This document shows, piece after piece, positions 625 to 7,468 of a stretch of DNA of 7,468 nucleotides (position 1 is its first letter; the number at the start of each line of letters is the position of its first letter). Source of the stretch: Paraspadella gotoi (lineage: Eukaryota; Animalia; Chaetognatha); contig JBJCIZ010000644.1 in the NCBI GenBank assembly GCA_051294375.1, forward strand, positions 1-7,468. The letters run 5' to 3'. The position numbers and the translations under genes are program-made. The notes below the pieces were generated by a model that was given only the letters and a program-made list of their open reading frames with translations, did not search any database and was not told where the DNA came from.

Positions 625-650
625 CAGCAACTAACAATCAACATCTGTCA

Positions 651-1620
651 ATGTTTTTCCGTAAACGCGCGCTCGCGCGTGCCCTCTCAACCATGACGAT
701 CGCGTTCGATTCGACCGAAAAAAGAATCGACGTCATTTCCCCATTTCGCGCCATGGCATCGAGTCCTCATTTTTCCTTAATTTCTTCCGAAGAGGACGAA
801 CGAAAACAGAACGAAACTTTTTTCGACCAGTCTCTAACCATTTACAAAGTAAGCGAAGAAATCGATTTTCCTCAACAAGTAAAAGACAAAATAATTTTGT
901 TATGAAGAACGAAATTGCCAAACACTGCGAAAATTGCCACACCATCCGCGCGCAACAGGAACAACTCATTTCGTCCTTTAAAACTTTTGTGAACAAACAA
1001 ATAAAAAATTCTCCCCGAACCAGCCGATCTTCACCAAAACCGTTTACAAACCGCAGGAGAACATCTCAGAGAATTATGCGTAAGTCGACACAACGCGCCC
1101 CGCTGGACCTGTCCGTTCTCGCCAAAAAAAATCCCGCGCGATTGAGCGCCGAGGAAGTAGATTCGTATTTTCGTTCGAAAATTCACAGACTTTTCCTACG
1201 ATCCCAATCCTGACTCCGCACCCCCGTCACCGTCTTCCACCCAAGAATTTCACAACGCCGTTCTCACACCGACAATTTCGTTCCTCACGATTCGATGAAC
1301 CGGAACCGGAAGCGGAAGACCCCTAGAGTTCATACAACACTCATCACGACACCTTTTAAAAAAAAAAAAAGGACAAGATAATTTATGCCACAAGAACTTA
1401 ATTGCTCTGTTACGAATGTTTTCTACTAAACATGGAAATGACTTTTTACGCCGAATTCATCGAAGGTACCTTTACCCACGAAGAGATGTACATAAACGAT
1501 TATTTTTCGACCGATTCACCCACAAGAAGAAGATGCGATGATGAACTCTCCAACCCCACCACCGACGAAGGAGACGTCAGGATATCGCGGCGAACGAAGC
1601 GTCATCATGGACATTACTAA
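651..1620 (+). CDS. Putative frameshifted regulatory protein(s) with PLDLS and LxCxE motifs (E1A/E7-like)
   Basis: Successive + ORFs at 651-905, 902-1213 and 1402-1620. PLDLS at 1100-1114, LLCYE at 1402-1416 with acidic sequence downstream, and CENC/CYEC cysteine pairs. Start is ATG 651 or the strong-context gccATGG at 753. That these form one gene is inferred. Confidence 0.5.
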
Positions 1621-2986
1621 CGCCCCCCTTACCCCACCAACAACCCCTAAAACTAAATCATAAAACGGAAAAACGAAAAGAAAAAAATTACTAATATCCC
1701 AAATTCGTAATTATCAGAACCCAAATTGCGATCATGTAAATTTTTCTAACCACAAACATTTGCCATTGTACTTTAAACACGTAATCACGGACCACTTCGA
1801 AATAAAAAAAACAAAAAAAGTTAAAAACTTCTCGTGAAAACGTTGAACTCTCCCGACATCATATCGTTTTTAAAGAATCAACGACGACACCGATCCACAT
1901 GCCTTCGACCGTATCGTTCCGCGACTTTTGTGCAACGCCCCATCGACTCATGGATCCATTCTTCGCAAAGAGGAACGGGAGAAAGTTCGGCGCAGGGTCA
2001 ACCCCCCACCCCCCTTCCGCCCTGAAACGAATCCTGCAAGCGTCAACCCACCGCCACCCAGCAACGAATTCCCACCACGCAGCAACGACACGACCCCAAC
2101 CGAGGAGGAACCGACATCGACGACGAACAAACGTCCGGAGTCCCATGAGGAAGAGTCCGACGATTGGGAGGATGAAGAAGCATTTTACTAACAATAATTT
2201 TAAAAAAAAATTAGCCCTCTCGGTAAAAAGGACGAATACGAGAGTCTTTATTCGGTTTATTCTCAAGAGAATGTAGATTTTATTTTAAGTTCGTATCAAA
2301 AATCATTAGGCAAAATAATTCAATCGTTTAGATTCGTTCCTCGCGAAGAGTCAGCCGATTTCGTCGAACTACTCAACAGAGCCAAACCTCTTTTTAGTAA
2401 TATTATACTTTGAGAACTAAAAAAACAAAAATCTATCAAGTTTTCAGTAAAAATTCGTTTAGCTTTATTTTCCGCCGTAGGCACGTCCACCGACATGGGA
2501 GAAGAGAGCGACGTCGAACACATCGAAGACGCCGACTTGATATATTACGAAAGTCAACAGCCCGTAGAGATCCTGATTCGTGGGGACGGGTTACGGAGCA
2601 CGTTGAACAGGATATTCGAAAATTTGTTTTACGAGATTTCTGAATTAACGTTGAAATGATCCGGACTCGTCTATCTATACACAGTATTTTTAAAATTAAA
2701 TATATTTCGTTTTAAAAATATTATGAGTGTCGGCGGGGCTCACCAAAAATCCCGAAGTTCATCAGAAGAAAGAACGCGCTTTTAAACGTTCCAAGCAATG
2801 ATGGTAAATGTCTGCTGAATTGTATAATAGCATCAATTTTTAATTTTTCCTCAAAAACCGCCAAGTGGGAAAAAAATTATAGACCCTTTTATAAATATAT
2901 TAATTACGAAGGCGTGAATTTTCTGATCACCAGTCCGAGACAAATCGAAAAACTAGAGAAACTTAATAAAAATTTATTTGCCATTC
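1607..2986 (+). pseudogene. polB: N-terminal part of the same pPolB (frameshifted, with in-frame stops)
   Basis: 2219-2986 reads ...LK*SGLVYLYTVFLKLNIFRFKNIMSVGG / PKFIRRKNALLNVPSNDGKCLLNCIIASIF...INYEGVNF...IEKLEKLNKNLFAI. This matches the Polinton PolB N-terminal block (GSGW..L.I.KY..GS.YI.LP..I..K.A.INV.N.D.KCF..S...F.GI.FP...I.KFEK.N). The start at ATG 1607 (A at -3, G at +4, same frame as ORF 1928-2191 and 2219-2745) is tentative. Confidence 0.8.
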
Positions 2987-3291
2987 AAAAAAGAGAGAGA
3001 TCATTAGTAAGTTTCCCCTCTCCGTCCTGATAATAAAAATGTAAAAATTTAACAAAATTCTTTTTATTTTTTCTTCGTTCGATCAGACATCTTTACGTTG
3101 AATCGTCCTAACGGTTACGAAAAGATCGTTCTAAGAGAGAAGGGAAAGAAGAAGGAAACGTGTCGTAACCACGACCGACGACGCGACCGATCGACCGAGC
3201 ACCAACCAACCGGTCTTCGAAAACGTTTTTCGGTAAGGTAAAAAAAAAAAAGATATTAAATTACGAAATGACGAAATGTCTCGTCGGGGAT

Positions 3292-3340
<49 letters not shown>

Positions 3341-3377
3341 CTCTCTTTCTCAGTCTCTCTCCTCTCTCTTCTTCTCT

Positions 3378-3423
<46 letters not shown>

Positions 3424-3501
3424 CTTTCGAATCTCGAAATATCGGAATCTCTCTCTTCTCTCTCTCTCTCCTCTCTCTCTCTCTCTTTTCGATCTCAAAT
3501 T

Positions 3502-3565
<64 letters not shown>

Positions 3566-3621
3566 GGAAAAGCGCTACTGACGATCGAGGAAAAAAGAGG
3601 CTCTCTGTCATTTTTTTATAG
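2987..3621 (+). CDS. Putative spliced 3' part of the secreted-protein gene (exons 2987-3006, 3087-3232, 3567 to ~3581/3621)
   Basis: Intron 3007-3086 has a GTAAGT donor, a TTTAAC branch-like site, a pyrimidine tract and CAG. Splicing gives the open frame KKREII-N-IFTLNRPNGYEKIVLREKGKKKETCRNH. A second donor G|GTAAGG lies at 3233, and the CT tract ends in CCAG|G at 3566. Confidence 0.45.
3007..3086 (+). other. Predicted 80-nt GT-AG spliceosomal intron
   Basis: GTAAGT...TTTAAC...TTCTTTTTATTTTTTCTTCGTTCGATCAG; AT-rich; its removal preserves an open frame. Confidence 0.6.
3295..3563 (+). repeat. Compound (CT)n microsatellite in three blocks with two related spacers
   Basis: TC blocks at 3295-3420, ~3448-3485 and 3506-3563; spacers at 3421-3447 and 3486-3505. 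Confidence 0.98.
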
Positions 3622-3733: not shown

Positions 3734-6700
3734 TCACCCCTTCTTTTTTTCTCTAAAATTTCCTTTTTTTCTCTTGAGGGCGGGGGTATTTCATACAACA
3801 TTCTTTTTTCGGTGTAATTTGATATGGGGTGATTAAAGGGCAAGTTTTTAACGCATTACGGAAAAAAACTTAAGTCGAAGGATTTAAACTTTTTTTTGAT
3901 AATTCAAGCAAGTACATAAATGTCTATGACTACGTAGAACATGATTTAGTATATTGTACATTTTGAAAATATAAACTTTTTACGTAGTCCTTCATACCGA
4001 TTTTTTCCGCCGCGGCGCTATCCACCCCTTTCAGTCTAATCTTTTTATCATAAGTTTCTTTTTTATAGTCGAAAGTCAAAAACTGTAAGCTTTGGCCTTC
4101 AGACCGGCAAACTGCGCGCTATTTGATTGGGGTAGATCGATCTTAAATTTCCATTAACTTTTTCGTTCTTTTTTTGCCATTCGAAAAGAGTATCCTTTAT
4201 ATTTTCATTATGGTGAAATAAGGATGATCTTTATCCAGATTGCTAACATCCACAACTTATGTAATTTAGCCATTGATTTATAAAAAAAATCCGGACCGTC
4301 TCTTCGAATTGAATAATACTTTTAGGCATACCGAATCCGTATCGGAGGCGAGGACTCTCACGTTGTCGTTCCCGGGGAAGGTGCGGAACTGGGCAATATG
4401 AATTCGTGGAGGCATATCTGGAGGTAATATTTGAAAGGTCTAACACACCCACCGTAAAGATCAGTCGTCCAGCAGTACCTTTTTTGTTGTAAGATTTGCG
4501 TAAATGCAATTTTCTGAAGAGATCATGGCGTCGATGAAGGCGTGGTCGGATATGGTCTTCAACGCCTCCCTCTCGCTAGTAATAAACTTAAAATTTAGCC
4601 ATTTGCCTCCCGCCCACTAACTTGCCGTAGATTACGTTCGAGACAATTTTGCTCTAGAACATTGTATTTTGCTCTTAGATTTTGCCCTTAGTCGATATTT
4701 CCCTGCACAAACTCTCGAAACACACCTTTTGGCGAAAAAAAATAATATTATTGACTCTGGTCAGTTTCACTCCTCTCGTCAGCAAATACTTAAGAAAAAA
4801 GGAAATGTATGAGATAATTTTTTTTCTTGTTAAAATCTACAATTAATTTTTGAACTTTAGCATTTTTTGTTCCGGTTTTAGCCATAAGAATCTTAGTGAA
4901 GGGGGACAGTTCGTCGGGTCGAGGATTCTGTTTTCGGTCAGGGGGGGAACACGTCGAACAAATGCTTGCCTTTCTGTGTAAACTAAATCCACATTAAGAA
5001 AATAACCTATATTACCAAAATTATCTATATTATTACCGGAATTGATTAAAAACTCTCTTTTAATTTCTTTCAGTTCCCGACCCCTCAAATATCGTAAACC
5101 CGCGTAAGGCAATTTATATTTTAATAAAATCTGGCATATAAAGAGTTGATGTCTAAGGGCAAAATGAGCAGGAATCGTAAAGAGGGGTGAGGTGATATCT
5201 CAGACCCTGCCAAATTTCTTCACCCCCTTCCCTCCCTTCCTTCCCTTCGTCCTGCTCTCCGAATCGATGCCCTTCCGATTGTATGATTTTTTAGCTAAAA
5301 TTAAAGCTTCTTTCCGCTTCCTCTAATAATTTATCGCTTATTTTAGCGATATCTTCCGGATGGGTTTGGTAATTAATTCGTCGTTCGATGAGCGTAATTC
5401 ACGAAAATACCCGACCAACCCCCCGTATGGATCGGCGAATTTCTTTGTAAATATCGATGGATCTGAGCATTCTAATTTTACGTTAGATTTATACTTACAA
5501 GCGTCAAAGCGAAAGCTGGTAACGAAAATAACGAGTTATGTCTAATTTAAAGATAGAATATAATTCTTTTCTTAAATTAACGATATTGTCTAATAATGAA
5601 TGGTGTCAATTTTACATAAATGCTGGCATACTCTCCCAAGTTTTTGCATTTTAATTATTATACATGTCTAAAGCTTCCTGATAGTCGCTCTCCGAAATGT
5701 TTTTTCGTTTGAGTCGTGAATAGAAATCTTCGTGTTTAGGGAATTCCGTCTGTTGTAACACGTTCACCCTTGAAGAAATCGTAGAAAAAGTTTGCTTTTC
5801 TGAGAAACGGGGCTAAGGATTCATCATAATTATTTCTTTACAAATTGATGAGTATAAAAAAAATTTTCTTTTAGTCTCTCTGCGCATTCTGGGCATGGGG
5901 TTCCGACCCTTTTTCGCCCCGACAGACGCAAGTATTATTTTCGACTAATTTACTCACTAGGGAGTCCAGGCTCTCAAAATTAAAGTAGTTACACGAATCG
6001 AGAAGGAAAAGCCTCAGTCTTACACTCTTTACATGATTTTTTCCTTTCATTGTTTATAAAACTCCTAATCCTTCTCTCTTTCTTTTAGGTGATTCATCGT
6101 CATCGTCCTGTCGTCCTGTCATCTCTCATCTCGTATTGGAGACTTCGTCAAGTCCTGGCCCCCCGTCGTTCGAGTCGAACTCCATCGTCATCGTCGCTGC
6201 ATCGGGTTTCTCACCGGCTTCCACGCCGTCCGGCCTCCAACGTTTCCACTCGGTCGTAAGCTTCGCTAATACCGGGCATGTCGGCGAAACCCATCTTTCT
6301 CCCTCTTTTTCTCTCTTCTGCTATGTTGGAACCGCCCCTTTGTATATTCTTCGATCTTTCTCTTCTTTCGGCTCTGCATTCAGGCAAAAGAAGCGAATGC
6401 TGACCTCAATCACTTTTCTTCCGTCTTACCCAAACTCCACTCTGCGAAAATAATGGCTTAAGTTCGCTATGGAAGAGGAAGAATCTGGGTAAATCATAAC
6501 TGAGATTTTGTATGGCTATAATTATTTGCTCTTGTCTATCAATGCAAATTCATCGATTGCAAACTAATGCATATATTTTATTGTTAATGTGTAATTCAAA
6601 TTCAATTTACCGGATAAATGTTCGTGATGTAAAACTTTACTGTGTTTTTGAAATAATAAATCATTTTTTTGGGAAGGAATCTTACATAATTCACATTTTT

Positions 6701-7468
6701 TGCTCTTTTGTACTCTTTCGGATTTTATCGTTATTTTTAATTCATTTTGGTAGTTATGAGTTCGTTTAATTCGTATGAATCGTTATACAGAGAATCCAAA
6801 AAATGTTTTTGAACTTGTAATTTTCAAATTCTTCTTCCTCTCGCCTGATAGTGCCTGATAGGAAAGGTATGTGTTTTATCATAGGTATTAATTATCTGAT
6901 AAGCGTATGAAACCAATCTTAAATTACTTATGATTTACTTCGTTTTAAAAATTCTTGCATGGCATGTCGCTGCCACATTTTTCGCAGTCCTACTGGCGTG
7001 TCGTTTTCGTGCTTGAATTGCACCAAGGTCTGTTCTTGCCTCTCCTCCCCCAAGGGATGTACTCTCTATTCAGAATTCAAATTTTTATTCAGTATTTATC
7101 GCTTCGGTGTCGCAAGCGCCAATGAATTTCGAACAGTAAAACGAAGACCATGATTTAAATTCGATGTGAGTGCCCGGTGGGGTCAGTACAAATTTTTGAT
7201 TTCTTTTTTTTTTGAAACATGTTTCGTAATGTGTGATTTTTTTAAGTATAACTTCCAAAGGATCTTAAACATTTAACCAGAAGAACTTCGTACGGTATTC
7301 CTGCTTATGGATGACGACAAGGAGTCTGGAGAGGACGAATGACCATGAAGTGGCTGGCCCTTTCCGTCTGTAATTAGTGAGTCGAACTGCGGTTTCTCGT
7401 TGCACGAGCTAATGAAAAACGGGAAAATTTCTAATTTCTTATTCTTGTAAATTCGTATGTGTAGATAT
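3734..7468 (-). pseudogene. polB: Protein-primed family B DNA polymerase, central and C-terminal part (many frameshifts as sequenced)
   Basis: Manual - strand translation across frameshifts gives collinear motifs: Exo I FIGACDTEA (CDTEA 7114-7100); CELC...KVLHHEHLSGK...CNR (6695-6551); Exo II AIQNLSYD (QNLSYD 6510-6493); LRLFLLDS...SLDSLV (~6020-5955); FLRKANFFYD, EDFYSRL, KNLGEY (~5810-5625); SIRGG (~5430); motif A DINSLY (5153-5136) then LPYAG and GYFLNVDLVY; motif B NVIYGK (4638-4621); motif C SDTDS (DTDS 4343-4332); FAGLKAKAYS and LKGV (~4110-4020); LPFNHP; TGA at 3736-3734 (end approximate). Confidence 0.93.

Follow-up and report, generated by a model that had tools for sequence, protein, structure and literature searches.

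The region 651–1663 of the DNA analysed here (a stretch of 7468 nucleotides, hereafter the window) very probably contains two separate small genes, ORF-A and ORF-B, as judged from comparison with other copies of the same element. Our reading as a whole, which we regard as evenly balanced, is that they are two Oncoid-class accessory genes placed before a Polinton PolB, with ORF-A directed at CtBP through a PLDLS motif and ORF-B directed at Rb through an LxCxE motif. The features on which the argument depends are as follows.

~753 to 1326–1362, + strand: ORF-A, ~200 codons, in several frames in the window, with SSEEDE, CENC and PLDLS; both ends are presumed
783–800, + strand: SSEEDE, an acidic patch that includes two sites of CK2 type (frame +3, six-frame translation)
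926–937, + strand: CENC, the single CxxC of ORF-A, His-flanked (frame +2)
1100–1114, + strand: PLDLS, CtBP-type motif (frame +2)
1300–1317, + strand: CGGAA repeated three times in tandem, retained by the copies that diverge most
1327–1376, + strand: T/A-rich stretch with an A run, variable in length among copies (from piece net lengths), containing the ORF-A/ORF-B boundary
~1368–1663, + strand: ORF-B, ~100 codons, LxCxE near the N-terminus and an S/TP-rich C-terminus; start broken in the window (frame +1 open over 1402–1617)
1402–1416, + strand: LLCYE (LxCxE), with the overlapping CYEC at 1408–1419 (frame +1, stop immediately before)
1625–1645, + strand: PLTPPTT, Fbw7 phosphodegron-like (frequency in shuffles 0.0067 in the region, 0.03 window-wide)
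1664–2987, + strand: 5′ part of the Polinton polymerase gene (profile positions 346–430 at 2746–2988, E 1.7e-11; presumed start near 1664)
3750–7468, − strand: rest of the polymerase gene, inverted, with its EndoVII-like, exonuclease and catalytic parts (seven collinear profile matches)

Element type, polymerase and copies

By its sequence, the window is one copy, rich in indels, of an element of the Polinton/adintovirus type that exists in many copies. A first pattern scan of 120 loci found no Polinton polymerase among them. A scan with a polymerase motif gave eight viral loci (L124–L131) that were used as Polinton references; we take them to be Polintons since they encode a double-jelly-roll capsid, an rve-chromo integrase and an A32 ATPase in addition to EndoVII. 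The three full-length reference polymerases tested all match EndoVII and none matches PF03175 (0/3). A profile built from 11 ORFs of the eight loci was searched against 353 frame pieces of the window and gave eight collinear matches at E < 0.5 (best 1.7e-11): the one in the 5′ part of the gene and seven on the − strand, which cover profile positions 625–1183 from 6755 down to 4467 in the window (E 5.6e-8 to 0.21). This collinear homology with the EndoVII-type Polinton polymerases bears out the adintovirus-like element type suggested in a preliminary description of the window. The polymerase appears to belong to the divergent, non-PF03175 ‘Beta’ PolB class described in the parts of PMC8502044 available to us, since the absence of PF03175 from the references fits this class.

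Using Pfam, no OTU-like N-terminal domain was found in the broken frames of the window or in the three reference polymerases, and no match from these broken frames passed the curated cut-off, the polymerase being found by the profile only. Of the other hallmarks of Polintons (hexon, rve-chromo integrase, packaging ATPase and terminal inverted repeats), none is in the 7.5-kb window. Protein searches with polymerase pieces of the window were negative (0/59 and 0/1835), and one such search returned eukaryotic clusters at 0.93–0.96. One candidate locus (L001) was rejected because its surrounding genes are unrelated and phage-like; another (L003) has one weak short match to a polymerase piece and contains no polymerase-like match, and two plasmid matches to polymerase pieces are due to chance.

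Relative to the sequences of other copies, everything in the window from 2988 onwards is inverted. The loose contig ends behind 2987 resemble, by eye, the reverse complement of the right end of the window in 4/4 runs. In other copies, the polymerase passes from ~2987 directly into the last base of the window (7468), read backwards. The 2987/2988 break coincides exactly with the point where the record ends, which suggests an artefact of the assembly or the library over a natural inversion. The + strand polymerase piece was rejected as a separate paralogue, being joined to the − strand part in other copies. Once the inversion is taken into account, the region 651–1663 directly precedes the polymerase 5′ end; its earlier placing ‘directly upstream of the polymerase’ thus holds for the 5′ part of that gene, according to both the profile matches and the other copies.

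Nine sequencing runs of organism A, from three studies, contain part of the stretch; two of these (X3, presumably RNA, and X4, a DNA run) are near-identical in the tables and were counted as one data set. The contigs that align (507, 268, 105 and 106 in four identity bands) are all from organism A, and hundreds of short contigs lie on 630–3290, in identity bands from <90% to >99%. Such a spread over identity bands is expected of a multi-copy family, the identity among copies being 80–99%; contig depth here is no measure of copy number, and none of the aligned contigs showed a host junction. The gap density is very uneven: five of the 30 listed pieces, spanning 751–1990, have 61 gap letters compared with 39 substitutions (5.7 gaps per 100 nt), and four listed pieces spanning 2024–2987 have four gap letters compared with 65 substitutions (0.4 per 100 nt). 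Nearly all of the gap letters are missing from the window (12/12 indels among those listed). Since gaps exceed substitutions, and do so one-sidedly, they point to read errors; the frame breaks in the window seem mostly to be errors of this kind, and some decay of this copy may be added to them. It should be noted that a low-depth contig class is identical to the window over 2024–2258, although frame +2 has stops near 2190; the lineage of this class may be partly decayed, or 1664–2190 may be a separate ORF.

Two genes or one between 651 and 1663

The motifs previously pointed out in this region (SSEEDE, CENC, PLDLS, LLCYE and CYEC) are all found at their claimed positions in the six-frame translation, though spread over three frames. 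They are probably in coding frames, as indicated by the net lengths of other copies and, for ORF-A, by the pattern of silent differences. Net lengths were tallied for 25 of 32 listed pieces (seven with other end points were omitted) and for eight of 30 from a second listing. ORF-A would start at 753 (or 651/693), where the ATG at 753 has a G at −3 and a G at +4, and would end between 1326 and ~1362. A net length of +7 over 751–936 brings the frames of SSEEDE and CENC together, and a single contig with net +11 over 962–1251 and net +2 over 1096–1251 connects the CENC frame to the PLDLS frame; the listed pieces reach 936 and resume at 962. Among the listed differences at 783–845, 3/3 are silent in frame +3 and 2/3 in frame +2. 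At 1115–1173, after PLDLS, 4/8 are silent in frame +2, with one and three in the other frames, and at 1198–1215 3/3 are silent in frame +1, as net +1 predicts; the counts are flat (2, 2, 2) at 1240–1265. One of the polymerase controls gave 9/14 in frame +2 over 2204–2656 and the other was undecided (3/9 versus 3/9). SSEEDE, CENC and PLDLS therefore probably share one ORF, since the net lengths tie their frames together and the silent counts agree.

Frame +1, in which LLCYE is read, is open for 72 codons, and frame +3 is open there too. A net length of +8 over 1442–1634 connects the LLCYE frame +1 to frame +2, that of PLTPPTT. Other copies have, by eye, a start codon after the A run, ~35 nt ahead of LLCYE, and net +2 over 1377–1435 fits the frame of this start codon with LLCYE, which thus appears to be read in ORF-B. 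This ORF ends a few bases from the presumed polymerase start and several of the listed indels lie at the ORF-B/polymerase junction, as would suit ORF-B being the outermost N-terminal part of the polymerase, or else a coupled replication helper, with only ORF-A acting on the host. We consider this unlikely: the ~345 profile positions before 2746 put the start of the polymerase near 1700, not 1370, and no reference polymerase matched 1368–1663. ORF-B is better viewed as a gene of its own.

The boundary between ORF-A and ORF-B lies in a spacer whose length does not vary by triplets. Over ~1192–1338, all nine tallied pieces (9/9) are net −3 (n = 6) or net +3 (n = 3), i.e. natural classes 6 nt apart, and such triplet differences inside ORF-A are as in coding DNA. 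Pieces over 1308–1390, on the other hand, have net lengths of 0, 0, 0, −1 and −2 (the −2 piece begins at 1320, beyond a listed indel), and two pieces from one run have net +2 and net +9 over 1308–1435. The stretch 1324–1376 also holds 13 of the 40 listed substitutions. Since well-covered classes differ by non-triplets across the spacer, a non-coding gap, and thus two genes, is likely.

We may wonder whether a single E1A-like protein could still carry all of the motifs, either in a continuous frame or by splicing across 1327–1400. Frame +3 is indeed open over 1299–1535 in the window, and in the parts of PMC5930299 available to us E1A itself joins PxDLS and LxCxE in one protein. However, besides the non-triplet lengths of the spacer, other copies have the start codon after the A run, and the joints across the spacer end TA..TG or TA..TC, with the intervening letters undefined, and not GT..AG; no donor-like word was found in 1085–1460 and no acceptor-like tract after 1025. 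All of this makes a single protein very unlikely, and the ‘one frameshifted protein’ of the preliminary description is probably wrong. The order of the motifs, which had been described as the reverse of that in E1A, would with two genes simply be the gene order.

Motif frequencies and predicted host targets

Chance estimates were made with dinucleotide shuffles, excluding the GA tracts from the window-wide, six-frame version. SSEEDE, PLDLS and LLCYE each have one exact match in the window, and CxxC has 14 outside the GA tracts. In the three + frames of 651–1663, the shuffle frequency is 0.0015 for PLDLS and 0.033 for LxCxE, and PxDLS occurs together with LxCxE in 2/4000 shuffles. The window-wide figures are fairer, because the region was picked after the motifs had been seen: exact PLDLS in 10/600 six-frame shuffles (0.017), LxCxE at 0.60, and PxDLS together with LxCxE in 54/600; the broad PxDLS pattern appears in 76% of the window shuffles. 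An exact PLDLS is fairly unusual by chance and LxCxE alone is unremarkable. Ahead of the polymerase, PxDLS is present in none of the five reference Polintons with upstream DNA (0/5; seven loci checked); loose LxCx(E/D) matches are present in 2/5, which shows that LxCxE arises easily.

No difference among those listed falls within PLDLS (1100–1114), compared with eight in 1115–1173; a blank 15-nt motif has a chance of ~10% at the local difference density, and six of the 13 differences in the 1096–1173 pieces carry no listed position. Likewise, no listed substitution falls within LLCYE (1402–1416). With copies that are 80–99% alike, motif conservation has little power. In the most divergent copies, alignment picks up again at 1405/1408, where it includes CYEC and leaves out the first Leu of LxCxE. 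The most divergent contigs also resume at 1301, for 23 letters, at the tandem CGGAA words, which we take to be a possible ETS-type promoter element for ORF-B. PLTPPTT, which presumably fits the Fbw7 degron pattern, was spotted post hoc, by looking at the sequence first.

The surroundings of LxCxE differ from what had been described. Instead of acidic residues, hydrophobic residues follow LLCYE, the nearest (S/T)xx(D/E) being 20 residues on, so that ORF-B has an LxCxE with no CK2 site within 19 residues; it also has no second CxxC. The SSEEDE patch was rejected as the CK2 site of LxCxE because it sits 600 nt upstream, in the other ORF (ORF-A). CENC and CYEC, which had been noted as cysteine pairs, are 160 codons apart on separate ORFs, and for this reason they were also rejected as one zinc finger. 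The CR1 motif (DEN)(LIMV)xx(LM)(FY) has 0 matches in the three frames of 651–1663, where a frame break could mask one.

By analogy with E1A, as presented in the parts of PMC5930299 available to us, the PLDLS of ORF-A would dock on the corepressor CtBP, relieving or redirecting repression, and the LxCxE of ORF-B would bind Rb-family pocket proteins and free E2F. The freed E2F would in turn provide the element with nucleotides and host replication factors in resting cells, S-phase entry of the host cell being the predicted outcome of the two genes together. PLTPPTT might limit the lifetime of ORF-B or act as a decoy for Fbw7, a role that we regard as doubtful. PLDLS is rather likely to be functional in the predicted CtBP binding; for LxCxE and the predicted Rb binding, function and chance are evenly matched.

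The two genes could also be real and one or both of their motifs incidental, with CYEC binding a metal or belonging to a small folded domain at the ORF-B start, and PLDLS as a chance occurrence in a disordered protein. That LxCxE is found in 60% of the window shuffles and that the broad PxDLS pattern is so frequent both agree with this, as do the hydrophobic residues after LxCxE, the lack of a nearby CK2 site and the point at which the most divergent copies resume. Against it, exact PLDLS occurs in only 1.7% of the window shuffles, ORF-B lacks a second CxxC with which a finger could be completed, and 1 kb at the described Oncoid site contains the two motifs together with an acidic CK2 patch and a motif of degron type. 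Incidental motifs are thus possible, but we do not favour them, and we retain the reading of two accessory genes for CtBP and Rb in what follows.

Comparison with Oncoids and tumour-virus proteins, and neighbouring sequences

Motif-bearing ORFs upstream of adintovirus PolB have been named ‘Oncoids’ (Starrett et al., 2021; PMC8502044), and the term is used likewise in an adomavirus paper (PMC13696692). In the parts of PMC8502044 available to us, Oncoids typically lie upstream of PolB and have an LxCxE followed by a CK2 site, (S/T)xx(D/E), and paired CxxC, with CR1 in some; E7 and large T are described there as having LxCxE plus CK2. The class rests solely on short motifs, as discussed in the accessible part of bioRxiv 10.1101/2024.03.25.586562. 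ORF-A and ORF-B are similar to Oncoids in being small motif-defined ORFs just before a Polinton-type PolB, with an LxCxE accompanied by CxxC, and the likeness to adintovirus Oncoids proposed earlier is confirmed to this extent, an LxCxE ORF upstream of PolB. Unlike a typical Oncoid, however, ORF-B lacks a CK2 site immediately behind LxCxE, as well as CR1 and a paired CxxC, and therefore fits only the loose definition given by position and LxCxE. ORF-A differs in being a second gene, with PLDLS and no LxCxE; CtBP is unmentioned in the portions of PMC8502044 and its supplement accessible to us. The CtBP motif is the new element here, Oncoids upstream of PolB being already published, and PxDLS-bearing Oncoids may already be recorded, for example among the supplementary sequences of PMC8502044. 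Literature searches, largely of papers open without subscription, found none linking Polintons or adintoviruses to CtBP and none on Polintons with retinoblastoma and the cell cycle.

Adenovirus E1A binds CtBP through PxDLS and pRb through LxCxE, and is also linked to Fbw7 (PMC5930299); all three have counterparts in ORF-A and ORF-B. Yet E1A is one protein with both motifs, whereas here there are likely to be two genes, with no CR1 and no four-cysteine finger. No Pfam, PDB or protein match to E1A was found, in searches whose sensitivity is lowered by the broken frames; by sequence, neither ORF-A nor ORF-B is an E1A or E7 homologue. Papillomavirus E7 is small, with LxCxE near its N-terminus and a C-terminal CxxC pair, and SV40 large T has a C-terminal Fbw7-type motif. 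ORF-B is similar to E7 in its size and in the position of LxCxE, and to large T in its C-terminal Fbw7-type motif, but it has neither the acidic CK2 run after LxCxE nor the C-terminal CxxC pair.

Searches for homologues of the 651–1663 region outside organism A gave 0/31 candidates. Two matches among 1.84 billion were repeat-summed artefacts, P0001 and P0002 were rejected as homologues, and L002 is a bacterial chance match. Two further searches returned no locus, a PDB search one chance match (E 0.49) and an Atlas search no usable match, and in Pfam no match to the broken frames of the region passed the curated cut-off. None of the upstream ORFs of L124–L131 clearly matches ORF-A or ORF-B. L131 has a different, acidic and cysteine-rich ORF directly before its polymerase (9775–10143, − strand; 124 aa, three CxxC), which has no LxCxE, PxDLS or Pfam match.

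More speculatively, the E1A toolkit may have been split over two Polinton genes. ORF-A would then be the first Polinton/adintovirus CtBP-binding protein and ORF-B a protein of E7 size that binds Rb and has an Fbw7 degron or decoy, driven by the conserved triple CGGAA in the end of ORF-A. If true, a family of endogenous viruses would have arrived independently at the early programme of tumour viruses. Oncoids have so far been motif-based guesses, and an exact PLDLS plus LxCxE in neighbouring genes of a multi-copy family makes CtBP/Rb manipulation testable. Real binding would support Polintons as real viruses driving entry into the cell cycle, with CtBP as a further host target; absent binding would weaken motif-only Oncoid calls.

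Finally, several features flank the two genes and the polymerase. A long (GA)n tract occupies 399–624 and a (TC)n tract 3295–3563; with the inversion undone, they would share a strand, one preceding ORF-A and the other following the polymerase. Across the (GA)n tract, head-to-head with ORF-A, a gene on the − strand (4–204) runs off the window; it starts with a hydrophobic stretch that by eye resembles a signal peptide and has no Pfam match. Tandem AAAAG(C/T)G words at 230–300, upstream of this − strand gene, are possible promoter repeats. At 3232–3566 (+ strand), a donor-like GTAAG, combined with the (TC)n tract and the CAG at its end, has the look of an intron.
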